This document shows positions 5,159-64,000 of a stretch of 64,000 nt of DNA, piece by piece. The stretch covers positions 285 through 64,284 of the forward strand of contig CAKOIE010000004.1 of assembly GCA_934086395.1 (NCBI GenBank), written 5' to 3'. The notes beneath the pieces are model-generated. The model ran no database searches, was not told where the DNA came from, and saw only the letters and a program-made list of their open reading frames with translations. The first letter of the stretch is position 1, and each line of letters starts with the position of its first letter. The stretch is from an uncultured Bacilli bacterium. GTDB taxonomy: Bacteria; Bacillota_I; Bacilli_A; RF39; UBA660. The translations under genes were made by a program, and so were the position numbers.

Positions 5159-5596
5159 TTAAAATATAATATCTTTAAATATACTCTTATATAAAGAATT
5201 AACATAATTATATTTATCTATTAACTCTTTATTACATTTATTTATATATTTATGTTTTTTATATCTTCTTTTTATTCTTACACATTCATAATAATCATAC
5301 ATTCTATTAACTTGTAAATCATACATATCTAAAAATTTATTATATAAAACTTTTAAATAACTTCTAGCTAATTTAATAATTAAATTACAATATACTATAT
5401 CTTCAAAATTACTTATTTTATAATTTATTAAATAAGTAAATAGTTTATATTCTTTATCACAATAATCACTTACAGGATCTTTATATCTACTATTTTTATT
5501 ATTTTTTAAATTGACTACTAAAAATAACATTTCACATTTAATATTAAAACTGATTTTATATACATTTAGTATTTTTTTATTATATTTTTCTTTCAT
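5159..5596 (-). CDS. Hypothetical basic protein
   Basis: 145-aa ORF with GAGG about 11 nt upstream of the ATG. Extremely AT-rich, with no recognisable motif. Confidence 0.35.
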   Translation of the reverse strand: MKEKYNKKILNVYKISFNIKCEMLFLVVNLKNNKNSRYKDPVSDYCDKEYKLFTYLINYKISNFEDIVYCNLIIKLARSYLKVLYNKFLDMYDLQVNRMYDYYECVRIKRRYKKHKYINKCNKELIDKYNYVNSLYKSIFKDIIF

Positions 5597-5771
5597 TATT
5601 TTTGGTACCTCAATTGTTTCCTTACCGGAAAAAACTTAATGATTTCTTTTATTTTTATTTTGTCGGGCCGTCTATTTTACTCGCTTTCGCTCGCGTGGCC
5701 GGCCCTCTAGGAACCAATTTTCCTAGTCTTGTTTTACTTTATATGTTTTTCTTTACGCTTAGTTTACACAA

Positions 5772-14317: not shown

Positions 14318-14393
14318 TGGCTGCCCAGGTTGGATTCGAACCAACGAAATGTTAGGGTCAGAGCCTAATGCCTTACCACTTGGCGACTGGGCA
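14318..14393 (-). tRNA. tRNA-Gln (anticodon CTG)
   Basis: Cloverleaf read by eye: acceptor TGCCCAG/CTGGGCA, D-arm GCCAAGTGGTAAGGC, anticodon loop CTCTGAC, T-arm GGTTCGAATCC, encoded CCA. Confidence 0.9.
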
Positions 14394-38402: not shown

Positions 38403-38479
38403 TGGTCGAGAAGACAGGATTCGAACCTGCGACCCCTACGTCCCAAGCGTAGTGCTCTACCAAACTGAGCTACTTCTCG
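38403..38479 (-). tRNA. tRNA-Pro (TGG)
   Basis: Acceptor CGAGAAG/CTTCTCG, anticodon loop CTTGGGA, T-arm GGTTCGAATCC, CCA encoded. Confidence 0.9.
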
Positions 38480-38512
38480 ATAAAAAAGCCTTTCGGCTTT
38501 ACTCTTACTTTA

Positions 38513-38588
<76 letters not shown>

Positions 38589-38592
38589 ATCA

Positions 38593-38669
38593 TGGCGGTT
38601 CGTACGGGATTCGAACCCGTGATCTTCTGCGTGACAGGCAGACGTCATAGGCCTCTAGACTAACGAACC
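38593..38669 (-). tRNA. tRNA-Asp (GTC)
   Basis: GGTTCGTTAGTCTAGAGGCCTATGAC..., anticodon loop CTGTCAC, CCA encoded. Confidence 0.9.
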
Positions 38670-38670
38670 A

Positions 38671-38747
38671 TGGTTGCGGGAGCCGGATTTGAACCAACGA
38701 CCTCCAGGTTATGAGCCTGGCGAGCTACCGAGCTGCTCTATCCCGCG
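38671..38747 (-). tRNA. Initiator tRNA-fMet (CAT)
   Basis: CGCGGGATAGAGCAGCTCGGTAGCTCG...CTCATAA... Shows a C1:A72 mismatch and close similarity to bacterial initiator tRNA. Confidence 0.85.
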
Positions 38748-38756
38748 ATAACTATA

Positions 38757-38847
38757 TGGCGGAGAAAAAGGGATTCGAACCCCTGCGCCGTTGCCGACCT
38801 CCTGGTTTTCAAGACCAGTCCCTTCAACCAGACTTGGGTATTTCTCC
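38757..38847 (-). tRNA. tRNA-Ser (TGA)
   Basis: Long variable arm, anticodon loop CTTGAAA, CCA encoded. Confidence 0.9.
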
Positions 38848-38873
38848 GTTTCCTTCTTTCAAGGAACAAATAG

Positions 38874-38903
38874 ATTATATCACACTAAAAAAAATTAAGT
38901 CAA
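38874..38903 (-). promoter_or_regulatory. Promoter of the minus-strand tRNA cluster
   Basis: TTGACT (38898-38903) - N18 - TG-n-TATAAT (38874-38879) on the minus strand. Confidence 0.55.
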
Positions 38904-39025
38904 CAATTAGAAACACTTTTTTTACTTTTTTTTCATATTTCCTTGTATGTATATGTATTTTTATTCAAAAAAATACTTAAAAATAATAAAAAAACTAAAA
39001 TTTTAACAAATTTTTAAAAAAAGTA

Positions 39026-39054
39026 TTGCACTAATTAAAATTATTTGGTATATT
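39026..39054 (+). promoter_or_regulatory. Promoter of the plus-strand tRNA cluster
   Basis: TTGCAC (39026-39031) - N17 - TATATT (39049-39054). Confidence 0.55.
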
Positions 39055-39087
39055 CAAGAAGTCTTAGTTATTAAGACAAATGTGCCC

Positions 39088-39176
39088 GCCCGAGTGGCGG
39101 AATAGGTAGACGCACAGGACTTAAAATCCTGCGAGCATAATAACTCGTGCCGGTTCAAGTCCGGCCTCGGGCACCA
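39088..39176 (+). tRNA. tRNA-Leu (TAA)
   Basis: Acceptor GCCCGAG/CTCGGGC, long variable arm, anticodon loop CTTAAAA, CCA encoded. Confidence 0.9.
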
Positions 39177-39191
39177 TTTAATATATTAGTC

Positions 39192-39268
39192 GGGCGATTA
39201 GCTCAGTTGGTTAGAGCACCTGCCTTACAAGCAGGGGGTCGTAGGTTCGAGTCCTACATCGCCCACCA
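39192..39268 (+). tRNA. tRNA-Val (TAC)
   Basis: GGGCGATTAGCTCAGTTGGTTAGAGCA..., anticodon loop CTTACAA. Confidence 0.9.
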
Positions 39269-39276
39269 TTTAAATT

Positions 39277-39352
39277 GCCGACATAGCGTAATTGGTAGCG
39301 CAACTGACTTGTAATCAGTAGGTTGGGGGTTCGATTCCCTCTGTCGGCACCA
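39277..39352 (+). tRNA. tRNA-Thr (TGT)
   Basis: GCCGACATAGCGTAATTGGTAGCGC..., anticodon loop CTTGTAA. Confidence 0.9.
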
Positions 39353-39362
39353 TTTATAAAAT

Positions 39363-39446
39363 GGGAGGATAGCGAAGTGGTCAAACGCGGCAGACTGTAA
39401 ATCTGTTCCTTCGGGTTCCATAGTTCAAATCTATGTCCTCCCACCA
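39363..39446 (+). tRNA. tRNA-Tyr (GTA)
   Basis: Acceptor GGGAGGA/TCCTCCC, extended variable arm, anticodon loop CTGTAAA. Confidence 0.9.
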
Positions 39447-39458
39447 CTTTTAAATAAT

Positions 39459-39534
39459 TGCCTCGTAGCCAAGTGGTAAGGCATCAGACTTTGACTCTGA
39501 CATTTCGGTGGTTCGAGTCCCCCCGAGGCAGCCA
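39459..39534 (+). tRNA. tRNA-Gln (TTG)
   Basis: TGCCTCGTAGCCAAGTGGTAAGGCA..., anticodon loop CTTTGAC. Confidence 0.9.
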
Positions 39535-39543
39535 ATTTAAAAT

Positions 39544-39619
39544 GTCCTGTTAGCTCAGTCGGTAGAGCATTTGACTTTTAATCAAAGGGTCTGGAGTTCG
39601 AATCTCCAACAGGACACCA
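39544..39619 (+). tRNA. tRNA-Lys (TTT)
   Basis: GTCCTGTTAGCTCAGTCGGTAGAGCA..., anticodon loop CTTTTAA. Confidence 0.9.
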
Positions 39620-39630
39620 TTTGAAATATT

Positions 39631-39658
39631 AACCTTCTCTATTCGAGAAGGTTTTATT
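39631..39658 (+). terminator. Intrinsic terminator of the tRNA cluster
   Basis: AACCTTCTC-TATTC-GAGAAGGTT followed by TTTATT. Confidence 0.7.
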
Positions 39659-39724
39659 GTGCTTATTTATAATTATAATAAAAGACAACCTGCCAAGGCC
39701 ATCCTTTAAACAATTATTGCTTTA

Positions 39725-40132
39725 TTATGCAAATAAGTTATCTTTATATTTAATATTATATTCACTCATTAAAATTCCAAAAGATTTATCATCTTCATAA
39801 ATATATTCTAAATCATTATTATAAGTTACATCAAAAGGATTAGCGTTAGAAGCAATATCAAATCTAGCACATTTGTTACCAAATATAACTTGTATTTCAA
39901 CGATATCTTTTTTATATTGTAATCTCTTCTTCTTAAAATTATCTAAAAAACCTTTATTTAATTTAATTAAGCATAAGTTAGCATATAATTTATTTCTAAT
40001 TATTGTAGGTTCATATGGAATTTCTTCTCCATCATTTTTTACATTAGAAATAAAGAAATTTTCACATTCTTCTTGATTTAAAGAAATAATATCTCCATTT
40101 TCAAATAATATATTAATTGCTTCTATCTTCAT
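39725..40132 (-). CDS. Hypothetical protein
   Basis: 135-aa ORF. No motif recognised. Confidence 0.45.
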   Translation of the reverse strand: MKIEAINILFENGDIISLNQEECENFFISNVKNDGEEIPYEPTIIRNKLYANLCLIKLNKGFLDNFKKKRLQYKKDIVEIQVIFGNKCARFDIASNANPFDVTYNNDLEYIYEDDKSFGILMSEYNIKYKDNLFA

Positions 40133-40239
40133 TCTTTATCCACCCTATAATAAGCATATCACATCTCATTAATTATGCAATCAAAAATACTTTATTTTTT
40201 TAAATTTTTATGATATATTATTTTTGCAATTATTTATTT

Positions 40240-40316
40240 GCGCTCATAGCTCAATTGGATAGAGCGTTAGACTACGGATCTAAAGGTTAGGGGTTCGACT
40301 CCCTTTGGGCGCACCA
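40240..40316 (+). tRNA. tRNA-Arg (ACG)
   Basis: GCGCTCATAGCTCAATTGGATAGAGCG..., anticodon loop CTACGGA, CCA encoded. Confidence 0.9.
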
Positions 40317-41779: not shown

Positions 41780-43183
41780 ATGAGTGATAATATGTTAATA
41801 AATGAAATTAAAAATAACTATAAAGATGTTCCGGATTTAAAATTAAGAAAAATTAAATATAAGTTATCTAATATCTATATTTTTTATGTAGAAACTATTT
41901 GTAGTAGTGAACAAATTAATAACTTTATATTAAAAAATATAACTAATCCAGTTAAGAAAAGAAATATTAATAATATATTAGCAACACCTAATTTAGTTAA
42001 AATTAATAAAGATGAAATTGATAAATATTTGTTTAATGGATTCTCTATTTTAATTTATAAAAATAAAATATTTGCATTAGAAACTAAAGCTAATTTAGAT
42101 AGAAGTATTAATACTCCTGAGATAGAACCAGAACTTTATGGAGCAAAAGATTCATTTGTTGAAAATTATCAAAAAAATATTGGATTAATAAAAAGAAGAA
42201 TTAAGTCTAAAGATATTAAAATTAAAGAATATTCAATTGGAAAGTATACTAGTACTAAAACAGGTCTAATTTATATTGAAGGTATAACTAATATGGAATA
42301 TGTTAATAATTGTGAAAAAATACTTAAAAATATAAATGTAGATGGAATAGTTGATGCTGGTGAATTAAAACAATATGTGGTAAGAGAACATTCTACTTAT
42401 TTTCCTAAGGTTAAATTAACAGAAAAACCTAATATGGTTGTTCATGCTTTATTAGAAGGTAAAATAGTAATTATAGTTGATACTTCCCCATTTGCAATTA
42501 TTGCTCCAGCTGTTTTGGCAGACTTTATCAATCCGATATCAGATAATTATGTTTATGCTAAAAATGTTAATTTTTTAAAAATACTTAGATTGGTATGCTT
42601 ATTTGTAACAGTTCTAACTCCGGCCTATTATGTTGCAATTGCCAATTATAATCAAGAAACTATTCCATCTAATCTTCTTATAAGTTTTATTACCCAAAGA
42701 GAAGGCGTTCCCTTTCCTACTACAGTTGAAGCCCTTATCATGTTAATAATATGTGAAATCTTAAGAGAAAGTGATATTAGGTTTCCATCAAATTATGGTT
42801 CAGCAATATCAATACTTGGTGCTTTAATTATTGGAGAGGCAGCAGTTAACGCTAGTCTTGTTAGTCCTATAATGATTATAACTATCTCATTAACGTTTAT
42901 TAGTAGTATGATATTTAATAATATTGAACTTAATGCAGCATTAAGATCATGGCGATTCTTTAGTTTATTTATTGCCTCTATATATGGACTTTTTGGAGTT
43001 GCAATATCATTTTTATTATTAATTGTAAATTTAACAAGTACTTATTCATTTAACCTATCATATACCTTCCCTGCTTCTCCATTTAATTTAAGTTATTTAA
43101 AAGAAACCTTATTTGCAGTTAAAAGAAAAAATAATATGACAAGATCAAAATATTTAAGTAAAAATATTAGAAAGCAAAGATAA
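41780..43183 (+). CDS. Spore germination protein, GerA family A subunit
   Basis: DRSINTPEIEPELYGAKDSFVENYQKNIGLIKRRIK plus a C-terminal multi-TM region are typical of GerAA/GerKA-type proteins. Confidence 0.85.
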   Translation: MSDNMLINEIKNNYKDVPDLKLRKIKYKLSNIYIFYVETICSSEQINNFILKNITNPVKKRNINNILATPNLVKINKDEIDKYLFNGFSILIYKNKIFALETKANLDRSINTPEIEPELYGAKDSFVENYQKNIGLIKRRIKSKDIKIKEYSIGKYTSTKTGLIYIEGITNMEYVNNCEKILKNINVDGIVDAGELKQYVVREHSTYFPKVKLTEKPNMVVHALLEGKIVIIVDTSPFAIIAPAVLADFINPISDNYVYAKNVNFLKILRLVCLFVTVLTPAYYVAIANYNQETIPSNLLISFITQREGVPFPTTVEALIMLIICEILRESDIRFPSNYGSAISILGALIIGEAAVNASLVSPIMIITISLTFISSMIFNNIELNAALRSWRFFSLFIASIYGLFGVAISFLLLIVNLTSTYSFNLSYTFPASPFNLSYLKETLFAVKRKNNMTRSKYLSKNIRKQR

Positions 43184-43184
43184 T

Positions 43185-44240
43185 ATGAAAAAGATAATAT
43201 TAATATTAATAACTTTATTTTTAACTACTGGTTGTTTTAATTATTTAAGTCTAAACGAAATTGCAGTAGTATCTTTAATTCATATAGATTATAAAGATGA
43301 ATATATTGTTACAGTTGAAGTAAGAGAAAATGAAAAAGATAATCCTAATGCATCTAATTTTTATACTAATTCAGGGATGTCGTTAGATATTGCCTTTGAA
43401 AATATAGGTTTAACTTTAAATAAAGCCTTATATTTAGTTGATACAGATACGTTAATTATTACTGATAATATAATTAAAGATAAACTTAATAATACATTAG
43501 ATTACTTAACTAGACAAAATAATATTGGAAATAACTTTAATATATTAGTATCTAATGATGATATAAATAAAATAACAGAAACTATTAAATCAAATAATAA
43601 AATTGTAGGATCATATATAAAAGATAGTATTAATAATCCATATAACAATATTGTAGATATTAAATTTAATAAATTTGTTAAAAATTACTTAAATGATTAT
43701 AAAGATATGATACTCCCCTATGGGAAATTAAATAATGATAAATTTATGATAGATGAAGCAATAATATTTAATAATAATAAAGATTTAATTAGAATAAATA
43801 ATGATGATGTTAAAATATATAATTTACTTAATAATGTTGATAGATATTCTTTATTTAAGATTAATTATAAAGAAGGATTCCTTATATATAGAGTTAAAAG
43901 TATTAAAACTAAAATAGATTATAAAGATAATAATATTAAAATAAAGTTAGATATAATTGGTAATTTTAATGAAATAGATAATATAAGTTTAAATAAAAAT
44001 AGTATAAATGAAGTATTAGATTTAACTAAAGATAAAATAAATAATAATGTTAATATGTTTATTAATAAGTTATTAGTTAATAATATTGATGCTTTAGGAT
44101 TTAAGAAAATAATATATAATAAGACTAAAAATAAATTAGATAACATTAATAATTTAAAATGTGATATTTTAGTTGATGTAGCCTTAGAAAGAGAAGAATT
44201 AACTTTTGATAATATAGGAGATAAACGAAATGAAATATAA
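43185..44240 (+). CDS. Spore germination protein, Ger(x)C family lipoprotein
   Basis: Lipobox LTTGCF, size, and position inside a ger operon. Confidence 0.75.
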   Translation: MKKIILILITLFLTTGCFNYLSLNEIAVVSLIHIDYKDEYIVTVEVRENEKDNPNASNFYTNSGMSLDIAFENIGLTLNKALYLVDTDTLIITDNIIKDKLNNTLDYLTRQNNIGNNFNILVSNDDINKITETIKSNNKIVGSYIKDSINNPYNNIVDIKFNKFVKNYLNDYKDMILPYGKLNNDKFMIDEAIIFNNNKDLIRINNDDVKIYNLLNNVDRYSLFKINYKEGFLIYRVKSIKTKIDYKDNNIKIKLDIIGNFNEIDNISLNKNSINEVLDLTKDKINNNVNMFINKLLVNNIDALGFKKIIYNKTKNKLDNINNLKCDILVDVALEREELTFDNIGDKRNEI

Positions 44241-45183
44241 TAAATTAGAATATAATTCAGCTTTATTTTTATCTAGTATATCTTTATTTTTAGGTATTGG
44301 TATTAGTAAAATTATTAATAATTTAGGTAGTGATTCTTGGATATCTATTATTTTAGGTACTCTACTCGGATTAATTATAAATTATATATTTAGTAAGTTA
44401 CCTGATAGAGAAAATAAAATATTAACTTATATTTATAGCACTATAATATTATTAATTAGTTTACTTTTAATAACAAAGTTAATATCTTCTATATATTTAA
44501 ATAAAACACCTGATATTATTGTTATATTACCTTTAATTTTAATTATATATTATTCAGTAAGTAAAGGAATAAATACAATATTTAAAGCTTCTTTAATTAT
44601 TTGTTTTGGATATTTATTAATTACAAGTATTCCTGCAATTGCATTAACTCCTAAAATTGATATTGATAATTTTAAACCTTTTTTTACAAGTAATATTATT
44701 AGTATTATTAAATCTAGTTTAGATTATGCTTTTATTAGTACTGCTCCTTTTATTTTATTTAATAAATTTAAAGAAAATTATAACTATAAAACTTATTTAT
44801 TATCTTCTTTTTTATTATTATTTATATTTGTAGGTATTATTGGTAATTTAGGTGTTAATTTAGCTAAGTTATATCGTTATCCTGAATATATGGTTTTTAA
44901 AGAGATTTCAGTTTTAGGATTTGTTGAAAATATTCAAAATATTTTATCTTATTTATGGCTTTTTTGTTCTTTTGTTTTATCATCTATAGCAGCAAATAAT
45001 ATTAAGAAGATATCAAATAAGACTTTATTAATAATTGCTTTAATATTAGTTACTATTTTATTAACAAAGATTATTTTAAATAATTATATTTATACAGAAT
45101 ATATTACTAAGTATTATGGAGAAATATTATTATCAACAATTATTTTAGGTATTATGTCAAGATTATTACCAAGTAAAAATTGA
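44230..45183 (+). CDS. Spore germination protein, GerAB-type permease subunit
   Basis: About 10 TM segments. Overlaps the C-subunit gene by 11 nt. Confidence 0.7.
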   Translation: MKYNKLEYNSALFLSSISLFLGIGISKIINNLGSDSWISIILGTLLGLIINYIFSKLPDRENKILTYIYSTIILLISLLLITKLISSIYLNKTPDIIVILPLILIIYYSVSKGINTIFKASLIICFGYLLITSIPAIALTPKIDIDNFKPFFTSNIISIIKSSLDYAFISTAPFILFNKFKENYNYKTYLLSSFLLLFIFVGIIGNLGVNLAKLYRYPEYMVFKEISVLGFVENIQNILSYLWLFCSFVLSSIAANNIKKISNKTLLIIALILVTILLTKIILNNYIYTEYITKYYGEILLSTIILGIMSRLLPSKN

Positions 45184-48657: not shown

Positions 48658-49986
48658 TTAAGCAATACGGAAGGCGGGAGAAAAGCCGTTAGTATCAGAA
48701 TAGTTAAAATATCCCCAGTCACCATCGTTTCGAACACGCAAAAATTGGTCATTAAAGTTTGATGGCATAGTTCGCAATATCCATGGATAATCTATATTAT
48801 TATAATGCTTGATGGTATTTATAAAATTAGTTGTTAAAACGCCATTTGTTTTATAATAATCAAGCTGTCTAGTATTATAATAAGCAGTGTCAAATCCAGA
48901 AATTATATTATTTGAACCATTAGTATATACTTCATGAGCACTTAGCAAGTATATTTTATCTATTGATTCCCAATTGCCGTCTGTTCTTTTATTGTTCTTG
49001 TCATCGCTGCCATGACCTGATACTACTTTTGTTTTTACTATTATATTTCTTAATTCATCTGGTAATTTATTAAAGAATTCTCCATTTGCGTATGTTCTTA
49101 TTGCTGTTGCTGGCCATCCACCATTATTTGTATTTGTTAAATTCATTTGTCTTTTTTCCACAATATCAACAAATTCTAAAACAAATCCACAAGCTGTCTT
49201 TGAAAATCCTTCTTTATTACATTCATCAGGTGTTGTATTATTTGCAACTCTAACTTTATGTACTTGATTATCAATAGTTACCTCTTTTTCAGAACCAACT
49301 GCATATGTTGTTAAATAACCATCTTTAACAATATTAGCTATTTTTTCCCATGAATCAGTACTAAATGTTCCTTCATAATTAATTACTATCTTTCCAGTTA
49401 AACTTTTTCCTTTTTCACTATCTTGATTTAAACCATTATCTGGAAATTGTAGTTTTAAATTAAATGTAATTGTTTGATTTGTTGTATTTGTTTTAAACTC
49501 TCCTGTTGCTAGTTCTAGGTATCTATTTCCTTTTTTTAAAGTACCATGAGTATATCCTGTTTCTGATGCATTTCCAGGTATTGCTTGATTAGATACTCCA
49601 ACTAAATTACTCGTTATATTACTATTTGTATTTGTTCTTTTTATATAATAATGAATCATTTCATCACTAAACTCTGATACATAATCTAGTCCTACTTTAT
49701 ATGGCATAGAAAGTCCACTTGTCGTATTTGTTCCTGTTAAAGTAAATGTTTTATTTACTATAATATTATTACTAGGTTCAATATTTTTACTTGTTAATAT
49801 ATCACTTGTTCCATCAGTATAACTTATGGTCATCTTTCCTCCTGTTACTTCTACTATTGATGTACTTCCATTATTATTTGTTGATGTAAAAAAAGCATAT
49901 GTTATTCCTGAGAACATCATTAATAATATTAATAATATTCCAATCATTACATATACTTTTACTCTTTCATTCTTAACCTTATTCAT
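48658..49986 (-). CDS. Secreted protein, family copy B (type-1 C-domain)
   Basis: SipW-type signal (FSGITYAFFTSTNNNGS) and a conserved N-domain. The C-domain has GGWPATA, IYLLSAHEV and a terminal FSPAFRIA. Confidence 0.85.
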   Translation of the reverse strand: MNKVKNERVKVYVMIGILLILLMMFSGITYAFFTSTNNNGSTSIVEVTGGKMTISYTDGTSDILTSKNIEPSNNIIVNKTFTLTGTNTTSGLSMPYKVGLDYVSEFSDEMIHYYIKRTNTNSNITSNLVGVSNQAIPGNASETGYTHGTLKKGNRYLELATGEFKTNTTNQTITFNLKLQFPDNGLNQDSEKGKSLTGKIVINYEGTFSTDSWEKIANIVKDGYLTTYAVGSEKEVTIDNQVHKVRVANNTTPDECNKEGFSKTACGFVLEFVDIVEKRQMNLTNTNNGGWPATAIRTYANGEFFNKLPDELRNIIVKTKVVSGHGSDDKNNKRTDGNWESIDKIYLLSAHEVYTNGSNNIISGFDTAYYNTRQLDYYKTNGVLTTNFINTIKHYNNIDYPWILRTMPSNFNDQFLRVRNDGDWGYFNYSDTNGFSPAFRIA

Positions 49987-50114: not shown

Positions 50115-51692
50115 TTATTCAAGAAGGTAAGGACTACCTTCTTCACCAGTTCCACTAGCTATCAAGATATCAGATTTCAAGAAAACGGCCGGCAGAACTC
50201 CGCTGGAGCTACACGCGCTGTTGCAGTCGACAGCACCGCCCCCAAACACATAGAACACATTATCCGAGTTACTAGAGTAAGGCGACAATGTCCAATACCA
50301 ACTAGACTTTTGTAACCAATTGTCAATTTTACATTTTGTATTAGTATAATCATTTTGTTCTTTTGCTTTATCATACACTACTCCAGCTCTTAAATTTTCT
50401 CTACATTCACTATTTGTTGAGGCATATCCATAATCACTAGCATAAATTAGTCCAACCTTACCTGTCCACTCAGTAGGGCGACTATTTTGATAGGTGATTG
50501 TTCCTCTTTCTTTATTATATTGATCTAATAGAGGCAATCCATATGGTGCAGAACTTGGGTTGTTATAACTATTTCCTCCAATGTTCCATACACTTTCACT
50601 TATCATATTTTGATAATTGCTTTTTATAACTTTAGTATAATCAAATTCTCCAGTTTGGTGAAGTACTATTTTTTTCAATGTTGAATCATAATATGAATTA
50701 TACCAATTTGTCTTGTTTGCAGTTAAAGCTGTATTTAAATAATCACCATTTAATTCTTTCATCAAGTCTGCTTCTGTCCAATTATTAAATCCATAATCAT
50801 TATTTCCAGTGGCATCCCATGAATATGATCCTAAAGATTCATTTCTAACTAATTTAATCTTTCTTTCAATTTTACCTGTTGAATCTTTTACATTAAATAC
50901 GCCTATTATTCTCCATAGTTCTCCTGTGTTAGCAAACTCAACATAATTATTTGGATTAGCACCTGTATATCTTAAGTTTACATCACTTGTATTATCTATA
51001 AATAAACCACTTGTTGATACTCCATTTGTTTTAGTTTCTTTATCATATAACGCAATTAATGTATCTGTTGCTGATTCTTTATAATTTACAATTATCTTTC
51101 CAGTGAAAATTTTTCCTTTTTCACTATCTTGGTTTAAACCATTATCAGGAAATTGTAGTTTTAAATTAAATGTAATTGTTTGATTTGTTGTATTTGTTTT
51201 AAATTCTCCTGTTGCTAGTTCTAGGTATCTATTTCCTTTCTTTAATGTACCATGGGTATAGCCTGTTTCTGAGGTGTTACCTGGTATCGTTTGATTTGCT
51301 GTTCCAACTAGGTTACTTGTTACATTACTATTTGTATTTGTTCTTTTTATATAATAATGAATTTGTCCATCACTAAACTCTGATACATAATCTAGTCCTA
51401 CTTTATATGGCATTGCTAAACCACTTGTTGTATTTGTTCCAGTTAAAGTAAAAGTTTTATTAACTATAATGTCATTACTAGGCACAATATTTTTACTAGT
51501 TAACAAATCACTTGTTCCATCAGTATAACTAATGGTCATCTTACCTCCTGTTACTTCTACTATTGACGTACTTCCATTATTGTTTGTTGATGTAAAATAT
51601 GCATATGTTATTCCGCCAAATAATAAAATCATCATCGTAATTGTAGATAAGATTACAATTAATTTTACCTTGCTTTCTTTCACTTTCATCAT
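50115..51692 (-). CDS. Secreted protein, family copy C (type-2 C-domain, VR-like 3' patch)
   Basis: SipW-type signal (FGGITYAYFTSTNNNGS) and a conserved N-domain. The type-2 C-domain has ELWRIIGVF, SVWNIGGN, GLIYASDYGYAS, WYWTLSPYS and VLPAVFLKS. Confidence 0.85.
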   Translation of the reverse strand: MMKVKESKVKLIVILSTITMMILLFGGITYAYFTSTNNNGSTSIVEVTGGKMTISYTDGTSDLLTSKNIVPSNDIIVNKTFTLTGTNTTSGLAMPYKVGLDYVSEFSDGQIHYYIKRTNTNSNVTSNLVGTANQTIPGNTSETGYTHGTLKKGNRYLELATGEFKTNTTNQTITFNLKLQFPDNGLNQDSEKGKIFTGKIIVNYKESATDTLIALYDKETKTNGVSTSGLFIDNTSDVNLRYTGANPNNYVEFANTGELWRIIGVFNVKDSTGKIERKIKLVRNESLGSYSWDATGNNDYGFNNWTEADLMKELNGDYLNTALTANKTNWYNSYYDSTLKKIVLHQTGEFDYTKVIKSNYQNMISESVWNIGGNSYNNPSSAPYGLPLLDQYNKERGTITYQNSRPTEWTGKVGLIYASDYGYASTNSECRENLRAGVVYDKAKEQNDYTNTKCKIDNWLQKSSWYWTLSPYSSNSDNVFYVFGGGAVDCNSACSSSGVLPAVFLKSDILIASGTGEEGSPYLLE

Positions 51693-55911: not shown

Positions 55912-57489
55912 CTATAAGCTTAATTTATAAGGGGTATCTTTTTCACCTGTTCCGGATGTGAATAAGATATTTGATTTTAAATAAAGAGAGGGGAAAACAT
56001 TATATGAGTAAGACGCATGATTGTAATCAACAGAACCATTCCAAACACAAAATATATGTTTCCAACTATTAGAGTAAGGCGACAATGTCCAATAATATGT
56101 CGTCGACTTATCTAACCAATTATCTAATTTACATTTCGAATTTGCATTATCATTTCGGTTATTTAAAGAATCATGCACTACTCCAGCTCTTAAATTTTCT
56201 CTACATTCACTATTTGTTGAGGCATATCCATAATCACTTGGATAAATTAGTCCAACCTTACCTGTCCACTTGGTAGGGCGACTATTTTGATAGGTTATCG
56301 TTCCTCTTTCTTTATTATATTGATCTAATAGAGGCAATCCATAAGGTGCAGAGCTTGGGTTACTATAAGTATTTCCACCTATGTTCCATACACTTTCACT
56401 TATCATATTTTGATAATTTTGTTTTATAGTTTTGGTATAGTCAAAATCTCCTTCTTTTCTTTGAACTGGCTTACTAGCTGTTGAATCATAATAACTATTG
56501 TACCATTTTGTATTAGATGTTAAAGTTGTATTTAAATAATCACCATTTATTTCATTCATTAAATCCGCTTCAGTCCAATCATTTATTCCCCAATCATTAT
56601 TTCCAGTTGCATCCCATGAATATGATCCTAATGATTCATCTCTAACTAATTTAATCTTTCTTTCTATTTTACCTGTTGAATCTTTTACATTAAATACCCC
56701 AATTATTCTCCATAGTTCTCCGGTGTTAGCAAACTCAACATAATTCTTTGGATTAGCTCCAGTGTATCTTAAGTTTACATCACTTGTATTATCTATAAAT
56801 AATCCACTTGTTGATACTTCATTTGTTTTTGTTTCTTTATCATATAACGCCATTAATGTATCTGTTGCTGATTCTTCGTAATTTATAGCTATCTTTCCTG
56901 ATAAACTTTTTCCTTTTTCACTATCTTGACTTACTCCGGTATCAGGAAATTGCATTTTTAAATTAAATGCAATTGTTTGATTTGTTGTATTTGTTTTAAA
57001 CTCTCCTGTTGCTAGTTCTAGATATCTATTACCTTTTTTAAGTGTTCCATGAGTATATCCTGTTTCTGAGGTGTTACCTGATATTGTTTGATTTGCTGTT
57101 CCAACTAGGTTACTTGATACATTATCATTTGTACTTGTTCTTTTTATATAATAATGAATCATTCCATCACTAAACTCTGATACATAATCTAGGCCTACTT
57201 TATATGGCATTGCTAAACCATTTGTCGTATTTGTTCCTGTTAAAGTAAATGTTTTATTAACTAAGATATCATTACTTGGCACAATATCTTTACTAGTTAA
57301 CAAATCACTTGTTCCATCAGTATAACTAATGGTCATCTTTCCTCCTGTTACTTCTACTATTGATGTACTTCCATTATTATTTGTTGATGTAAAAAAAGCA
57401 TATGTTATACCAGAGAACATCATTAATAATATTAATAATGTTCCAATCATTACATACACTTTTACTCTTTCATTCTTAGCATTATTCAT
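55912..57489 (-). CDS. Secreted protein, family copy D (type-2 C-domain)
   Basis: Same architecture as copy C. The C-terminal tail is SNILFTSGTGEKDTPYKLSL. Ends in TAG. Confidence 0.85.
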   Translation of the reverse strand: MNNAKNERVKVYVMIGTLLILLMMFSGITYAFFTSTNNNGSTSIVEVTGGKMTISYTDGTSDLLTSKDIVPSNDILVNKTFTLTGTNTTNGLAMPYKVGLDYVSEFSDGMIHYYIKRTSTNDNVSSNLVGTANQTISGNTSETGYTHGTLKKGNRYLELATGEFKTNTTNQTIAFNLKMQFPDTGVSQDSEKGKSLSGKIAINYEESATDTLMALYDKETKTNEVSTSGLFIDNTSDVNLRYTGANPKNYVEFANTGELWRIIGVFNVKDSTGKIERKIKLVRDESLGSYSWDATGNNDWGINDWTEADLMNEINGDYLNTTLTSNTKWYNSYYDSTASKPVQRKEGDFDYTKTIKQNYQNMISESVWNIGGNTYSNPSSAPYGLPLLDQYNKERGTITYQNSRPTKWTGKVGLIYPSDYGYASTNSECRENLRAGVVHDSLNNRNDNANSKCKLDNWLDKSTTYYWTLSPYSNSWKHIFCVWNGSVDYNHASYSYNVFPSLYLKSNILFTSGTGEKDTPYKLSL

Positions 57490-57635: not shown

Positions 57636-58889
57636 TTAATATAAATCATAGCATACTTTAAAAGCAGGTCTCATTTTTTCTATTTGTTCATTATTAATTC
57701 CATATTTTTTTGCTAACTTTTCCCAATTATTTTTTACAATATGTATAATTTCATCAGCATAGTTTTTAGCAATATCCTGAGAAATATCAAAATAATTTGC
57801 ACTTGAAATAGCTAAATTTATAGAAATACTATTATCAAAACTATCAATATTTAATGAAAGCATATCACCATAAGGAACAGGATTAACATCATATAGAGGA
57901 GATAAAATCCATCCTTTATTAGTTAATATAAACCCATGATTTCGTAAATGATCATCAGTATTCGAAACAGCCATATTAAAAATAATTCGTTTAAATAGTT
58001 CTATAAGATCCTCTTTCGGATTAGCACCATAGGCTTTGATAAAATCTACAATATCAATATAGCTTGTACCATCATCAGTTCCTGCACCATCATTTTTTCC
58101 AAGCATTGTCATAGCTGAAGCAAAATGTATTCTTTTTTTACCATCTCGATCAAAACGTTTAACCAAGAAAGTACTACCATCTTTTGAAAAATTTTCTAAT
58201 TTAGATTCAGGAACATTTAATTTACACATTTTTGCTAAATCATGCACTACTTTTTCCCATGCACCTACATTATAATCATCATTTTTAGAAGGAAACTTTG
58301 CAATCCATAAATTACCATGCTCATCTTCTACTGTAGCTTTTGGTCTAGCTCCTCCAAGAGAAGAACCTGGTTTTAGCAATTGATTAAGCCATTTATCATT
58401 CAATAAATTTCCATCTTTTTCAAATTGGCGTGATGCTTCCTCTAAAGTACGAAGAGTTGTCCAAGGAGGAGCAGCATTTTCAAAATCATCTGACAAAAAT
58501 GAAGCATTTTCATCTTCTTTAAAACGAAGAGCACCAATACGTGTTTGATCATATACTCCAAGCAAAAAATCACTATCATATAAATTATTAGGTTTCCTAT
58601 TTTCATTATTTGCTTTAATAACCTCACGTCTTTTCATAAGAACTCTTCCCCAACGATCTGGAGATGCATCAGCAAACATTCCAAAAATATTTTTAGTAGA
58701 ATATTGTCTTCCGGAAAACATGGAAATTTCAGGATCTAAATAAAATGAAAATTTTGATTGTTTTAGCCAATCATCATCATACGCAAAAGAATAATGTTCA
58801 ACACCACGTAAAGTATTAACATATAAAATTCCTAATTTTTTTGGCTCTATTGAACTGAAATTTTCATATACTATTATTTTTCGTTCCAT
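57636..58889 (-). CDS. hipA: HipA-family type II toxin kinase
   Basis: 417 aa. It has a HipA N-terminal coupling region and a C-terminal kinase-like domain (GGARPKATV, FNMAVSNTDDHLRNHGF). Confidence 0.85.
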   Translation of the reverse strand: MERKIIVYENFSSIEPKKLGILYVNTLRGVEHYSFAYDDDWLKQSKFSFYLDPEISMFSGRQYSTKNIFGMFADASPDRWGRVLMKRREVIKANNENRKPNNLYDSDFLLGVYDQTRIGALRFKEDENASFLSDDFENAAPPWTTLRTLEEASRQFEKDGNLLNDKWLNQLLKPGSSLGGARPKATVEDEHGNLWIAKFPSKNDDYNVGAWEKVVHDLAKMCKLNVPESKLENFSKDGSTFLVKRFDRDGKKRIHFASAMTMLGKNDGAGTDDGTSYIDIVDFIKAYGANPKEDLIELFKRIIFNMAVSNTDDHLRNHGFILTNKGWILSPLYDVNPVPYGDMLSLNIDSFDNSISINLAISSANYFDISQDIAKNYADEIIHIVKNNWEKLAKKYGINNEQIEKMRPAFKVCYDLY

Positions 58890-58891
58890 TA

Positions 58892-59206
58892 TTATTCTCC
58901 TTTAGGTGCTCGTTTCCTAACATGCATATTTAAATCCTGAAGTTTTCTTCCAAATTCATCATCCTTAGCAACAAGTAACAAGTCTTTATCTAAATTATTA
59001 AGAGAATGCAAGACATTAGCATAAATACCAATGGCAACAGATGGACTACCTTTTTCTACATTCCACAAAGTAGCACGACTTATTCCAGCTCTTTCAGCAA
59101 CTAATTTAACAGATAATTGTCTACGTAATCTAGCTAATTTAATTTGTTCTCCCATTATCACAAGAATTTCTTCAGTACTAGGTAAAACATTAACAGATTT
59201 CTTCAT
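58892..59206 (-). CDS. HipB-like XRE-family antitoxin
   Basis: HTH (IKLARLRRQLSVKLVAERAGISRATLWNVEKG). The stop lies 2 nt before the hipA ATG. The ATG at 59206 is preceded by GAGGTGA. Confidence 0.8.
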   Translation of the reverse strand: MKKSVNVLPSTEEILVIMGEQIKLARLRRQLSVKLVAERAGISRATLWNVEKGSPSVAIGIYANVLHSLNNLDKDLLLVAKDDEFGRKLQDLNMHVRKRAPKGE

Positions 59207-59275
59207 ATATGTCACCTCATAGCATCTATAATTATAGACTAAAGTAACAATAATGTCAATGTTTATAGACATTAT

Positions 59276-60767
59276 GTTAATCTTTTTTTAAAATGTCACC
59301 TTATCATTAATAGAAATGTCACCAATAATGATTTATAATATTTCTTTGGGAAGGTGATATTTTTATTATGCATAATAAACCATATGCATTAAAACTTGTT
59401 CAAGACAAAATAAATGGTTTAAATAATTATTCTTATTCTCAGATTAGTTCTCTTACTGGATTTACTAAAAGACATTTAATTAGGTTATCTCAAAAACTAA
59501 ACAAAAAGGATATTGATTCTATTTTAGTTCATGGCCTAACAAATAAACCTTCTAATAATTCACCATCCGACAAAGAAATTGAATTAATTAAGAACTTTAA
59601 GAATAAATATCCAGTTATTAGTATAACACAATTTCAAGATATTTATCATGAAGATGTTATTTGGAATCCTAATATGACTAAAATAGTAAAAGAGAACAAT
59701 CTTAAAGTAAGAAGTTATTCTTTTTATGAATCCTTGTATGAAAAGTTTCAATGGATAAAGCCTATAAAACATAGATGTTTTAATAAAGATTATGATAGTC
59801 ATCCTTTAAGAGAGCCTTCTCCACAAAGAGGTATTCTAATTATGATTGATGGTACTCCTCATGATTGGTTTCAAAATGGAAGAAAATCATCTTTACATTT
59901 AGCTATTGATGATGCCACAGGTGAAGCTTTATGTGGATGGTTTATGCCTACTGAATGTCTAGAAGGTTATGTTCATATGTTAGAAATATTAGTTACAAAA
60001 TATGGTATTCCAGAAAACATATACTGTGATAAACATACTATTTTAATAAGCCCCATCGATGGTAATCTAACTAATTTTGGTCATATGTGTGAAGATTTAG
60101 GTATCAATATAATTGCTGCTAATACACCTCAAGCTAAAGGAAAAGTAGAAAAATGGAATAACACTATTCAAAATAGATTAATAAATGATATTAAGAGATA
60201 TGGTATTAAATCTATTGATGAATTGAATATATTTTTTAATGATTTTTATTGTAATTATCTTAATGAAAAATATGCTTATGAGCCAAAAGAAAATGAAACA
60301 GCTTTTGTTTCATTAGATAGTACTGATTTATCTAATATTCTATGCATAAGAGATAAAAGAACAATACTTAGCGGAAATATGTTTTCCTGGAAAAATAATT
60401 ATTATCAAATATTGGAACAAGATAATTCTATAAAGCTAATTTATAAAGGTACTGAGATACATGTATTTGAAAATGTATTAACCAGAAAAGTTAAGGTTAA
60501 ATACTACAATATATTTTATGAAACTAAAAAAATCGAAGGTCATAGACAAGATCCAGAAAAAAGAGAACAAATGAGAATAGATAATCAAAAACAACTTGAA
60601 CAAGTTTTAAAAGAAAGAGATGAAAGATTAAAAGCAAGGGCGAACAAAGTGAGTTCATAATACCCTTGCTTTTCAGATTTCATCATTTATAATTTTTATT
60701 CAAACAAAGTTCACCTTTGTTTGCTATCTGTAATTATAAATTGGTGACATTTTAACTAATGTTTAAC
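59276..60767 (+). mobile_element. 1492-bp insertion sequence (rve-type DDE transposase, ISNCY/IS1202-like) with a 17-bp target site duplication
   Basis: 25-bp imperfect terminal inverted repeats (59276-59300 vs 60743-60767, 21/25 matches, both beginning GTTAA and ending TTAAAATGTCACC). Flanked by perfect direct repeats ATGTTTATAGACATTAT at 59259-59275 and 60768-60784. Confidence 0.85.
59368..60660 (+). CDS. DDE (rve/integrase-core) transposase
   Basis: N-terminal HTH region. Catalytic core MIDGTPHDWF...HLAIDDATGEALCGWF...IYCDKHT...ANTPQAKGKVEKWNNTIQNRL. Confidence 0.85.
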   Translation: MHNKPYALKLVQDKINGLNNYSYSQISSLTGFTKRHLIRLSQKLNKKDIDSILVHGLTNKPSNNSPSDKEIELIKNFKNKYPVISITQFQDIYHEDVIWNPNMTKIVKENNLKVRSYSFYESLYEKFQWIKPIKHRCFNKDYDSHPLREPSPQRGILIMIDGTPHDWFQNGRKSSLHLAIDDATGEALCGWFMPTECLEGYVHMLEILVTKYGIPENIYCDKHTILISPIDGNLTNFGHMCEDLGINIIAANTPQAKGKVEKWNNTIQNRLINDIKRYGIKSIDELNIFFNDFYCNYLNEKYAYEPKENETAFVSLDSTDLSNILCIRDKRTILSGNMFSWKNNYYQILEQDNSIKLIYKGTEIHVFENVLTRKVKVKYYNIFYETKKIEGHRQDPEKREQMRIDNQKQLEQVLKERDERLKARANKVSS

Positions 60768-60811: not shown

Positions 60812-62389
60812 TTATCTAAAACGGTAAGGACTAACCTCTTCACCAGTTCCACTAGCTATCAAGATATCAGATTTCAAGAAAACGGCCGGCAAAACCCCGT
60901 TAGAGTTAAACGCGCCGCCGCTGCTGACGGCACCGCCCCCATCCACATCAAACACATAAGTCGAGTAACCAGAGTAAGGCGACAATGTCCAATACCAACT
61001 ATACTTTTGTAACCAATTGTCTAATTTACATTTTATATTAGTATAATCAGTTTGTTCTTTTGTTGAATCATATACTATTCCAGCTCTTAAATTTTCTCTA
61101 CATTCACTATTTGTTGATGCATATCCATAATCGCTGGCATAAATTAGACCAACCTTACCTGTCCACTCAGTAGGGAGACTATTTTGATAGGTGATTGTTC
61201 CTCTTTCTTTATTGTATTGTTCTAATAGAGGCAATCCATATGGTGCAGAGCTTGGGTTGTTATAACTATTTCCTCCTATGTTCCATACACTTTCACTTAT
61301 CATATTTTGATAAGTGCTTTTTATGACGTTTGTATAATTAAATTCTCCAGTTTGGCGAAGTACTGGTTTCTTAGTTGTTGAATCAGAATATGAATTATAC
61401 CAATTATTCTTATTTGCAGTTAATGCTGTATTTAAATAATCTCCATTTAATTCATTTTTTAAGTCTGCTTCTGTCCAATTATTAAATCCATAATCATTAT
61501 TTCCAGTGGCATCCCATGAAAAATTACCTAATGATTCATTTCTAACTAATTTTATCTTTCTTTCAATTTTACCAGTTGAATCTTTTACATTAAATACTCC
61601 AACTATTCTCCATAGTTCTCCGGTGTTAGCAAATTCAACATAATTATTTGGATTAGCTCCTGTATATCTTAAGTTTACATCACTTGTATTATCTATAAAT
61701 AATCCACTTGTTGATACTCCATTTGTTTTTGTTTCACTATCAAATTTAGCAATTAATGTATCTGTTGCTGATTCTTCGTAATTTATAGCTATCTTTCCTG
61801 ATAAACTTTTTCCTTTTTCACTATCTTGGTTTAAACCATTATCAGTAAATTGTAATTTTAAATTAAATGTAATTGTTTGATTTGTTGTACTTGTTTTAAA
61901 CTCTCCTGTTGCTAGTTCTAAATATCTATTTCCTTTTTTTAATGTTCCATGAGTATATCCTGTTTCTGAGGTGTTACCTGGTATTGTTTGATTAGATACT
62001 CCAACTAGGTCACTTGTTACATTACTATTTGTACTTGTTCTTTTTATATAATAATGGATCATTCCATCACTAAACTCTGATATATAATCTAGTCCTACTT
62101 TATATGGCATTGCTAAACCACTTGTTGTATTTGTTCCTGTTAATGTAAATGTTTTATTAACTATAATGTCATTACTAGGCACAATATTTTTACTTGTTAA
62201 CAAATCACTTGTTCCATCAGTATAACTTATGGTCATCTTTCCTCCTGTTACCTCTACTATTGATGTACTTCCATTATTATTTGTTGATGTAAAAAAAGCA
62301 TATGTTATACCAGAGAACATCATTAATAATATTAATAATGTTCCAATCATTACATACACTTTTACTCTTTCATTCTTAGCATTATTCAT
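60812..62389 (-). CDS. Secreted protein, family copy E (type-2 C-domain, VR-like 3' patch)
   Basis: The 5' region and upstream sequence are nearly identical to copy D. The 3' end is C-like (VLPAVFLKSDILIASGTGEE). Confidence 0.85.
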   Translation of the reverse strand: MNNAKNERVKVYVMIGTLLILLMMFSGITYAFFTSTNNNGSTSIVEVTGGKMTISYTDGTSDLLTSKNIVPSNDIIVNKTFTLTGTNTTSGLAMPYKVGLDYISEFSDGMIHYYIKRTSTNSNVTSDLVGVSNQTIPGNTSETGYTHGTLKKGNRYLELATGEFKTSTTNQTITFNLKLQFTDNGLNQDSEKGKSLSGKIAINYEESATDTLIAKFDSETKTNGVSTSGLFIDNTSDVNLRYTGANPNNYVEFANTGELWRIVGVFNVKDSTGKIERKIKLVRNESLGNFSWDATGNNDYGFNNWTEADLKNELNGDYLNTALTANKNNWYNSYSDSTTKKPVLRQTGEFNYTNVIKSTYQNMISESVWNIGGNSYNNPSSAPYGLPLLEQYNKERGTITYQNSLPTEWTGKVGLIYASDYGYASTNSECRENLRAGIVYDSTKEQTDYTNIKCKLDNWLQKYSWYWTLSPYSGYSTYVFDVDGGGAVSSGGAFNSNGVLPAVFLKSDILIASGTGEEVSPYRFR

Positions 62390-62581: not shown

Positions 62582-64000
62582 TCATAAACTTAATTTATAA
62601 GGACTATCTTTTTCACCTGTTCCAGATGTGAATAAGATATTGGATTTTAAATAAATAGAGGGGAAAATTCCTAAAGAACGATAACACGTTGTACTATCAG
62701 CAACACCACTACTATTTATTCCAAAAATATCATAAGAATAGTTAGAAAAAGGTGTTATAGTCCAAAACCAATTTGATTTAAACAACCAATTATTTTTCTT
62801 ACATTTTCCATTTGAATAATCCCATTTTTCGTTTTCTTTGTCATATGTTAAACCAGATCTTAAATTTTCTCTACATTCACTATTTGTTGAGGCATATCCA
62901 TAATCACTTGCATAAATTAGTCCAACTTTACCTGTCCATGTGGTAGGGCAACTATTTTGATAGGTAATTATTCCCCTTTCTTTATTATATTGATCTAAGA
63001 GAGGTAATCCATATGGTGGAGTATTTGGGTTGTTATAACTATTTCCTCCAACGTTCCATACACTTTCACTTATCATATTTTGATAATTATTTTTTATAAC
63101 TTTTGTATAATCAAATACTCCAGTTTGGCGAAGTGATGGTTTCTTTGTTGTTGAATCATAATATGAATTATACCAATTATTCTTATTTGCAGTTAAAGCT
63201 GTATTTAAATAATCACCATTTAATTCATTTTTTAAGTCTGCTTCTGTCCAATTATTTATTCCACGATACTCATTTGTTATAGAATTTAACTTAGCATCCC
63301 ATGAAAATTCTCCTAATGATTCATCTCTAACTAATTTTATCTTTCTTTCAATTTTACCAGTTGAATCTTTTATATTAAATACTCCAACTATTCTCCATAG
63401 TTCTCCGGTGTTAGCAAACTCAACATAATTATTTGGATTAGCTCCTGTATATCTTAAATTTACATCACTTGTGTTATCTATAAATAATCCACTTATTGAT
63501 ACTTCATTTGTTTTTGTTTCTTTATCATATAAGGCCATTAATGTATCTGTTGCTGATTCTTCATAATTAATTACTATCTTTCCTGTTAAATTTTTTCCTT
63601 TTTCACTATCTTGATTTTCATTATTATCTGGAAATTGTAATTTTAAATTAAATGTAATTGTTTGATTTGTTGTATTTGTTTTAAACTCTCCTGTTGCTAG
63701 TTCTAGGTATCTATTTCCCTTTTTTAATGTTCCATGAGTATATCCTGTTTCTGAGGTGTTACCTGGTATTGTTTGATTTGCTGTTCCAACTAAATTACTT
63801 GTTATATTACCATTAGTATTAGTTCTTTTTATATAATAATGAATCATTCCATCACTAAACTCTGATATATAATCTAGGCCTACTTTATATGGCATAGCTA
63901 AACCACTTGTCGTATTTGTTCCTGTTAATGTGAATGTTTTATTAACTATAATGTCATTACTAGGCACTATATTTTTACTTGTTAATATATTACTTGTTCC
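62582..64000 (-). CDS. Secreted protein, family copy F (type-2 C-domain), 5' end beyond the window
   Basis: The reading frame stays open to position 64000, and the sequence there still aligns to the conserved N-domain (…TSKNIVPS…). Ends in TGA. Confidence 0.8.
   Translation of the reverse strand, partial: GTSNILTSKNIVPSNDIIVNKTFTLTGTNTTSGLAMPYKVGLDYISEFSDGMIHYYIKRTNTNGNITSNLVGTANQTIPGNTSETGYTHGTLKKGNRYLELATGEFKTNTTNQTITFNLKLQFPDNNENQDSEKGKNLTGKIVINYEESATDTLMALYDKETKTNEVSISGLFIDNTSDVNLRYTGANPNNYVEFANTGELWRIVGVFNIKDSTGKIERKIKLVRDESLGEFSWDAKLNSITNEYRGINNWTEADLKNELNGDYLNTALTANKNNWYNSYYDSTTKKPSLRQTGVFDYTKVIKNNYQNMISESVWNVGGNSYNNPNTPPYGLPLLDQYNKERGIITYQNSCPTTWTGKVGLIYASDYGYASTNSECRENLRSGLTYDKENEKWDYSNGKCKKNNWLFKSNWFWTITPFSNYSYDIFGINSSGVADSTTCYRSLGIFPSIYLKSNILFTSGTGEKDSPYKLSL

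Follow-up and report, generated by a model that had tools for sequence, protein, structure and literature searches.

Variable regions written by a diversity-generating retroelement in two cassette-less DUF6273 paralogues of an uncultured gut Bacilli bacterium

We studied a stretch of 64,000 nucleotides (nt), hereafter the window, from an uncultured Bacilli bacterium (RF39; UBA660; GenBank assembly GCA_934086395.1, contig CAKOIE010000004.1, positions 285 to 64,284 of the forward strand). The list of its open reading frames (ORFs) and the comparison of their products revealed six paralogues, named A to F, all encoded on the minus strand. Two of them, C and E, end in a GC-rich patch that an initial annotation, made from the letters alone, had taken for the footprint of mutagenic homing by a diversity-generating retroelement (DGR), a system in which a reverse transcriptase (RT) copies a template repeat (TR) into the variable region (VR) of a target gene. 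We found that the patches are genuine DGR-written VRs in remote paralogues of a family of DUF6273 surface proteins, that is, in copies that are not next to the cassette encoding the retroelement. The features concerned are listed below in window coordinates; identifiers of the types P0005 and L012 designate, respectively, proteins of relatives and contig loci of relatives.

5772-7136, minus strand: paralogue A, with a clear DUF6273 match (Pfam, 4.7e-16)
48658-49986, minus strand: paralogue B, an A-type DUF6273 protein (Pfam, 4.6e-14), directly downstream of C
50115-51692, minus strand: paralogue C, 525 amino acids (aa), a cassette-less (remote) homologue of a DGR target
50140-50186, minus strand: 3' block of C, 47 nt immediately 3' of the VR (GTTTTCTTGAAATCTGATATCTTG...)
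50187-50286, minus strand: VR of C, 100 nt, co-linear with the template repeat of the family; blastn match to the L012 cassette
50287-50300, minus strand: 5' block of C, 14 nt (TGGTATTGGACATT), conserved, just 5' of the VR
55912-57489, minus strand: paralogue D, with no functional VR
59368-60660, plus strand: integrase-core (rve-like) transposase gene, directly downstream of E; the rve match is weak (E-value 0.005)
60812-62389, minus strand: paralogue E, 525 aa, 89% identical to C, a remote homologue of a DGR target
60837-60883, minus strand: 3' block of E, 47 nt, conserved, 3' of the VR
60884-60983, minus strand: VR of E, 100 nt, in a frozen state; blastn match to the L012 cassette
62582-63967, minus strand: paralogue F, whose 5' end lies beyond the window edge; no functional VR

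All 13 non-synonymous codon pairs previously reported between the patches of C and E recurred in our alignment (codons 474-497), with changes restricted to positions 1 and 2 of codons that end in C or T. The patch also has five synonymous differences (TTC/TTT, GCT/GCC, TCC/TCT, GGA/GGG, CTG/TTG), and its invariant codons hold, as described, a single adenine, which lies in GGA. The base composition agrees equally well with the first description, since it reaches 65% GC in 60-nt windows; the two VRs have 57% and 59% GC, while the genes have 31% and the window 25.6%. In an 80-nt scan of the window, the only comparable GC islands were the tRNA genes and the 3' end of paralogue A. The estimate of divergence needed partial revision: the value of about 10% for the flanks held (10.4% outside the patch), whereas the patch itself differs at 22 of 100 nt and not at about 30%. 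The limits first assigned to the patches (50181-50276 and 60878-60973) are close to those of the element defined by the TR (50187-50286 and 60884-60983), which spans codons 469-502 of 525, at the 3' end of the target ORF.

Paralogues D and F have AT-rich sequence at the homologous place, in line with the initial annotation. The patch of D (about 55987-56086) has 34% GC and 45% identity to the TR, is one codon shorter, and retains only the first 13 nt (GTCGCCTTACTCT); that of F (62657-62756) has 32% GC and 44% identity to the TR. Repeat searches, blastn and tblastn found no TR, RT or Avd in the window, as had been stated, nor did they reveal there another copy of the patch in which the variable sites are adenines.

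The protein encoded by C was modelled with AlphaFold2 (predicted local distance difference test score of 83, and about 90 in the C-terminal half). The model suggests an N-terminal hydrophobic helix, followed by beta-sandwich domains and a C-terminal globular DUF6273-like domain. In Foldseek searches, its top BFVD matches were DUF6273 phage proteins (probability 1.00, E-values down to 7e-7), and the top PDB match, the only solved structure at an E-value of 0.001 or less, was the IgA peptidase of Thomasclavelia ramosa (9qa6, E-value 1.3e-8), whose N-terminal domain is a DUF6273 (PMC12402451). When PDB sequences were searched with a profile, nothing matched. The Pfam profile of DUF6273 (PF19789) had no match in C, D and F, and in E it scored 22.7 bits, below the gathering cut-off of 23.5, over residues 454-507, which correspond to the C-terminal end of the profile. 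DUF6273 is C-lectin-like and a published DGR target domain (PMC10743442, PMC11792537), and the targets of Faecalibacterium prophages have their VR at its C-terminus (PMC11792537). The lectin-like C-terminal domain that had been proposed from sequence motifs is thus borne out by the DUF6273-like fold of the model.

A chromosomal cassette in relatives and its template repeat

In gut metagenomes, over 2,500 relatives were retrieved with protein C as the query. At the C-terminus they follow the pattern WYWTLSPYSGxSxxVFxVxGxGAVxxxxAxxSxxVxPAVFLKSDILIASGTGEK, where x stands for residues reachable from AAY codons (Y, C or T). Three of these relatives are encoded directly upstream of a full DGR cassette: P0055 and P0049, with 73-74% identity to C, and P0005, with 86%. 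The order is target, orf99 (99 aa), non-coding TR of 100 nt, orf121 (121 aa), Avd (119 aa) and RT (353 aa). For the Avd-like protein the matches were bAvd and NF033474 DivGenRetAVD (6.9e-9); for the RT, which has the motifs LPIGNMTSQ and YMDD, the match was RVT_1 (3.9e-16). The conserved orf99 and orf121 (L015:4833-5132 and L015:5454-5819) match no family of Pfam or NCBIfam. None of orf99, orf121, RT and Avd had a tblastn match in the window, where the spot held by the cassette in cassette-adjacent loci is occupied by B downstream of C and by the rve-like transposase gene downstream of E.

The TR of L015 (TR15, GTCGCCTTACTCTGGTAACTCGAATAACGTGTTCAATGTGAATGGGGACGGTGCTGTCAACAACAACAACGCGTATAACTCTAACAGCGTGTGGCCGGCC) has 26 adenines in 100 nt. 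The VR of the same locus differs from it at 16 of these adenines and at none of the 74 other sites, and the VR/TR pairs of L007, L008 and L016 show the same adenine-only behaviour. When the L012 cassette was compared with the window by blastn, it matched only 50187-50286 and 60884-60983, in both cases over exactly 100 nt and at 79% identity. We then used TR15 to class the VR positions as adenine (26 sites) or non-adenine (74 sites). C and E differ from each other at 16 of the former and 6 of the latter (odds ratio 18, Fisher p=1.4e-7). Compared with TR15 itself, C differs at 13 adenine and 7 non-adenine sites (p=4e-5), and E at 14 and 6 (p=4e-6). The same pattern holds for the family at large: the variable columns of 61 distinct VRs fall on the AAY codons of the TR, where column entropy is 2.7-3.4 bits, against 0-1.5 bits at A-free codons. 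Since both the C/E differences and the entropy of the family track the adenines of the TR, we conclude that the patch is a DGR VR. The footprint of mutagenic homing called by the initial annotation was therefore correct: the TR of relatives aligns exactly to the patches of C and E, and their differences are concentrated on its adenines.

The cassette is chromosomal and has housekeeping neighbours (LemA, DUF2207, MBOAT, polA); scans of viral sequences in IMG/VR with the VR/TR pattern gave no match. A metagenome scan for the 3' end specific of C and E had no match either. In scans of a genome collection, the pattern used initially (TGGGGGCGG...) had a G where the TR has an A (GGGGAC) and was unable to match the TR; the redesigned pattern led to 5 loci. 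The cassette is widespread in gut metagenomes, given that 96 contigs encode exactly the Avd of L015. Relatives came from human gut samples, those of the Hadza among them, and from a rectum sample of water deer.

Some of these cassettes are altered. The RT cluster includes truncated proteins of 61-262 aa (e.g., NCBI MBP3444903.1). An ISL3-family transposase gene lies between the TR and orf121 in L016 (L016:2623-3927) and also in L018, L019 and L020, which have one common VR; three of these loci are 100% identical and the fourth 99.9%, and they thus look like one clone. In L017 (L017:1656-3301), P0040 and P0087, the reading frame shifts within the VR, past the GGGGCGGTGC block, and the usual C-terminus resumes in another frame. 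Either true indels or artefacts of assembly over a heterogeneous VR could explain these frameshifts.

Past writing and present state of the variable regions

The homology to the TR ends at CCGGCC, and the 47-nt block beyond this point is not covered by the TR. Its sequence is the same in C and E and almost the same in cassette-adjacent targets, and the first 18-24 nt are conserved in 10 of the 10 VR-bearing copies compared; in the 150 nt upstream of the VR the compared copies are only 47-73% identical (70-109 of 150 nt). Such conservation makes the block a candidate homing-boundary or target-recognition element. The 14-nt 5' block is also retained in C and E as in cassette-adjacent targets. 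A hairpin directly after the VR was looked for and no conserved structure was found (z-scores from -1.6 to +2.2). Instead, a GC-rich structured element of some 55 nt begins straight after the stop codon in all cassette-adjacent targets. This element, GGTGCCGCGAAGCGAGACGTGCC...GGCAGGCAC followed by a T-run, lies at L015:4689-4750 and L007:11570-11630 and at the same place in L008, L010, L012 and L016-L020; none was found after C, E or the remote VRs of L009, L011 and L013. Its role could be that of a terminator or of a cis element of the DGR.

C and E are sister copies in the 150 nt upstream of the VR, where they share 138 positions, against 103 shared with a cassette-adjacent copy. Since they differ at 62% (16/26) of the adenine sites in spite of these sister flanks, the VR was replaced in at least one of them after their split. 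Replacement could have resulted from trans homing or from recombination at the conserved flanks, and the two routes are inseparable in a family as mosaic as this one. Over codons 1-33 (the first 100 nt), C and E have 44 differences; in its N-terminal 50 residues, C is 98% identical to cassette-adjacent targets and 60% to E, and the N-terminus of E matches that of D at 100%. Further mosaics are found among relatives: P0242 joins a 3' half identical to that of C to a different 5' half, P0007 has the VR of E and a different tail from about 13 nt past the VR, and P0011 has only the 3' half of the VR in common with C.

Two positions suggest that the lineage of the window used a template of its own. 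Four of its VRs (those of C, E, P0007 and the upstream gene of L024) carry T (position 28) and G or A (position 88), whereas the four recovered TRs carry C (position 28) and C or T (position 88). Judging from these letters, these VRs would have been written by a distinct TR allele, probably with AAT as codon 9 and AGA as codon 29. Our searches did not find this lineage-specific TR. An NCBI contig of 14,429 bp, which carries the cassette-adjacent target P0262 (with a VR ending in ...GGVLPAVF like those of C and E), orf121 and Avd, is a candidate home for it and might belong to the same metagenome-assembled genome (MAG). L024 (ERZ4560003 NODE_1667, coverage 10.0) has two tandem VR-bearing paralogues next to dnaG-rpoD, and L002 (NODE_7023 of the same Hadza sample, coverage 12.0) is a contig of the strain of the window. 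The L024 paralogues may come from the genome of that strain, which would then have at least eight copies.

Cassette-adjacent targets do vary: copies that are more than 90% identical overall (P0005, P0262, P0263) differ at 12 of 34 VR residues, and L007 and L008, with 96.8% nucleotide identity, differ at adenine sites of the VR. The hypervariation at adenine sites that the initial annotation expected from strain comparisons was not found in E, whose VR is identical in all four members of its 90% cluster. The paralogue P0007 (locus L024, from the same Hadza sample as L002) has 91.6% nucleotide identity to E over the gene; the two VRs differ at 10 nt, 9 of them at non-adenine sites and 1 at an adenine site, and have 14 of 15 variable residues in common, against a median of 3 in the family background. 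These changes correspond to ordinary drift at the pace of the flanks, and no homing has thus taken place in E or P0007 since their split. Hence, the VR of E has demonstrably been frozen for a long time, and we saw no sign of the present diversification implied by a retroelement acting in trans.

The evidence on C is slimmer. C and E differ at 4-6 non-adenine sites (5-8%), about the gene-wide divergence of 8-10%, which implies that they are not both fresh copies of one TR. The MAG CAKOMY01 combines an intact cassette (L012) with a remote VR on a separate contig (L009), and this VR mismatches its own TR at 6 of the 74 non-adenine sites. For remote copies of the clade, a lack of register with the TR thus seems to be the norm. 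The VR of C is identical in L001 and L003, but these are so close to the window (99.8-99.97% identical) that the agreement is uninformative. P0242, with 18 differences from C outside the VR and none inside, was considered as evidence of a static C and rejected because the differences are all in residues 6-262, as expected of a mosaic. That C is not being rewritten now is likely but unproven.

Taken together, these results make it probable that the VRs of C and E were written by a DGR in the past, in paralogues lacking a cassette, and are not rewritten now. This explanation builds on the homology between VR and TR, the adenine-restricted pattern, the absence of a cassette from the window and the stasis of E. 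The RT of the chromosomal DGR of the clade would reverse-transcribe the TR with adenine-specific errors, and the cDNA would replace the last 100 nt of the DUF6273 domain in members of the secreted paralogue family. Hypervariable residues would arise from the 13 AAY codons of the TR and from four other adenine-containing codons (TAC, GAC, TAT, AGC), and the A-free codons (GTG, GGG, GGT, GCG, CCG, GCC) would remain fixed and GC-rich. We infer that C and E were written by the lineage-specific TR allele, in a past event that may have been homing in trans or recombinational import from a cassette-adjacent copy, and that they act as fixed alternative binding specificities, presumably for ligands.

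Several observations weigh against this explanation. The mismatches to TR15 fall on adenines in only 65-70% of the cases, whereas the rule used to find DGRs is 80% (PMC7517822); the lower share is caused by the use of a heterologous TR and by the drift of the VRs. No TR, RT or Avd of the same genome was seen, in a view limited to 64 kb of the MAG. C and E keep the 47-nt block perfectly, as expected under selection to stay targeted. Finally, the evidence for a static C is weak, given that even a cassette-adjacent VR shows no change at 99.86% identity, and C could be a still-active remote target. One may thus ask if C, E or both are rewritten in trans by a cassette elsewhere in the genome. Other DGRs have documented remote variable proteins (PMC7517822, PMC4891356, PMC8144416), both conserved blocks are kept as in cassette-adjacent targets, the adenine-site differences between the sisters imply rewriting of a VR after their split, and the 14,429-bp contig with P0262, orf121 and Avd might belong to the same MAG. 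Yet, E has kept all but one of its adenine-site states over about 8% divergence and accumulated non-adenine changes instead, C and E show 4-6 non-adenine differences, and the remote VR of L009 is out of register with its TR in a DGR-bearing MAG. Moreover, C and E lack the post-stop GC-rich element of cassette-adjacent targets, and related strains have truncated RTs and cassettes disrupted by insertion sequences (IS). These data make present rewriting of C or E quite unlikely.

Alternatively, the VRs may never have been written in place and could have arrived ready-made from a cassette-adjacent target, by duplication or by recombination over short tracts. The strong mosaicism of the family (the N-terminus of C, P0242, P0007, P0011) fits such transfers, and the conserved flanks would provide the homology needed for recombination. 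Both import and trans homing replace exactly the VR and have the same outcome, and import still requires a DGR as the writer. We regard it as somewhat unlikely and, in any case, as a variant of past writing by the retroelement. Dispensing with the retroelement altogether, by invoking diversifying selection and gene conversion with GC-rich codons as a coincidence, is extremely improbable. Recombination among paralogues is real, but the variable positions are the adenines of a real TR that lies beside RT and Avd in relatives, the fixed codons are A-free and GC-rich in a genome with 25.6% GC, and selection leaves unexplained the 0 of 74 non-adenine mismatches of cassette-adjacent pairs. We also considered a broader and unlikely idea: the DGR would work as a write-once generator whose VRs become frozen in spare paralogues or, if not, would target remote copies in trans at a low rate through the 47-nt block. 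A write-once panel may be suggested by the presence of at least four VR copies of the C/E type together with an A-type VR served by a different RT and TR (see below). The cassette itself is often lost, truncated or split by IS. If true, the write-once reading would give a stable multi-allele panel of DUF6273 binding proteins; low-rate trans targeting, if true, would make the 47-nt block a new kind of DGR target-recognition element that functions without an adjacent hairpin.

A second variable patch and the surrounding genes

Paralogue A ends in a patch of its own. Its last 43 codons (5775-5903, minus strand) are 88% NNY (N, any nucleotide) and have 51% GC, whereas the remainder of the gene has 44% and 30%, and a GC-rich hairpin lies downstream, at 5664-5705. 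The C-termini of the A family are hypervariable and follow the pattern WWLRAAxSxxxxFLxVxxxGxWxxxxAxxxxxGFAPAFRIG. At a related locus (L026), an A-type target is followed by an AAY-rich TR and by a 359-aa RT that is 24% identical to the C/E-type RT. The VR/TR pair of this locus has drifted heavily: 15 of its mismatches are at adenine sites and 20 at non-adenine sites. In the window, no TR was found for the patch of A. We regard the patch as VR-like, different from those of C and E, and pointing to a second type of DGR. The ORF downstream of A (5159-5596) was considered as a cassette gene and discarded, since its product has no similarity to Avd, orf99, orf121 or RT. The 3' end of B looks like a weaker version of the patch of A, with 70% NNY codons and 40% GC.

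The remaining genes of the region include, between D and E, a HipA-like kinase gene with a small helix-turn-helix gene upstream, which form a toxin-antitoxin-like pair (57636-59272). The window has 13 tRNA genes, 12 of them in a two-sided cluster (38403-40316) and the other encoding tRNA-Gln (14318-14393). The spore-germination genes GerA and GerAC and a spore permease gene lie at 41780-45183, in synteny with L001, and suggest a spore-forming lineage.

Comparison with known systems

Our analysis verified that a DGR footprint called from the sequence of the target alone was correct, even though the window has no retroelement. It also documents a chromosomal DGR that diversifies a large family of secreted DUF6273 paralogues in uncultured low-GC gut Bacilli. 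The contrast between E and the cassette-adjacent targets offers a worked example of how to tell frozen from active remote VRs, by non-adenine drift combined with adenine-site states common to paralogues. Finally, the 47-nt block, the post-stop GC-rich element, orf99 and orf121 provide leads on target recognition.

The prototype of these systems, the DGR carried by Bordetella phage BPP-1 (Mtd/TR/Avd/Brt), shares with ours the adenine-specific transfer from TR to VR, the AAY-rich codons of the TR, the association of Avd and RT, the VR at the 3' end of a protein with the C-lectin fold, and the sharp 3' boundary of homology. In the present cassette, however, the TR is located upstream of orf121, Avd and RT, and there are two extra ORFs (orf99 and orf121). 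Instead of a GC-rich hairpin right after the VR there is a 47-nt conserved coding block, and a GC-rich structured element follows the stop codon in cassette-adjacent copies only.

DUF6273 proteins are also the targets of DGRs of gut phages, such as the Faecalibacterium prophages (PMC11792537) and those encoding tentaclins (PMC10743442). Here, in contrast, the cassette is chromosomal, its VR/TR pattern has no match in IMG/VR, and the target is a cellular protein of 525 aa with N-terminal beta-sandwich domains, in at least six paralogous copies. The N-terminal DUF6273 of the T. ramosa IgA peptidase (9qa6, PMC12402451) resembles C as its best match among solved structures and also comes from gut Bacilli, but it has only 16% identity to C, is part of a peptidase, and is not known to be diversified by a DGR.

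The closest parallels to C and E are remote variable proteins. These are known for cyanobacterial DGRs (Vallota-Eastman et al. 2020, PMC7517822), and multi-target DGRs are known in Treponema denticola (PMC4891356); large surveys have left remote targets undetected as a consequence of fragmented assemblies (PMC8144416). Like C and E, the cyanobacterial and Treponema proteins are paralogues of cassette targets encoded elsewhere in the genome, have a VR at the 3' end of a C-lectin-type domain, and show detectable homology to the TR (here 80% to TR15). Transposases are often found near them, and here an rve-like gene lies next to E. They differ from the present case in several respects: the host is here an uncultured low-GC gut Bacilli bacterium, the variable domain is DUF6273, and the DGR of the same genome was not seen. 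Furthermore, E was shown to be frozen and to drift at non-adenine sites, whereas the surveys did not separate active from fossil VRs. Hence, remote variable proteins as such were already known, and what is new is the host lineage and the family of cellular targets.

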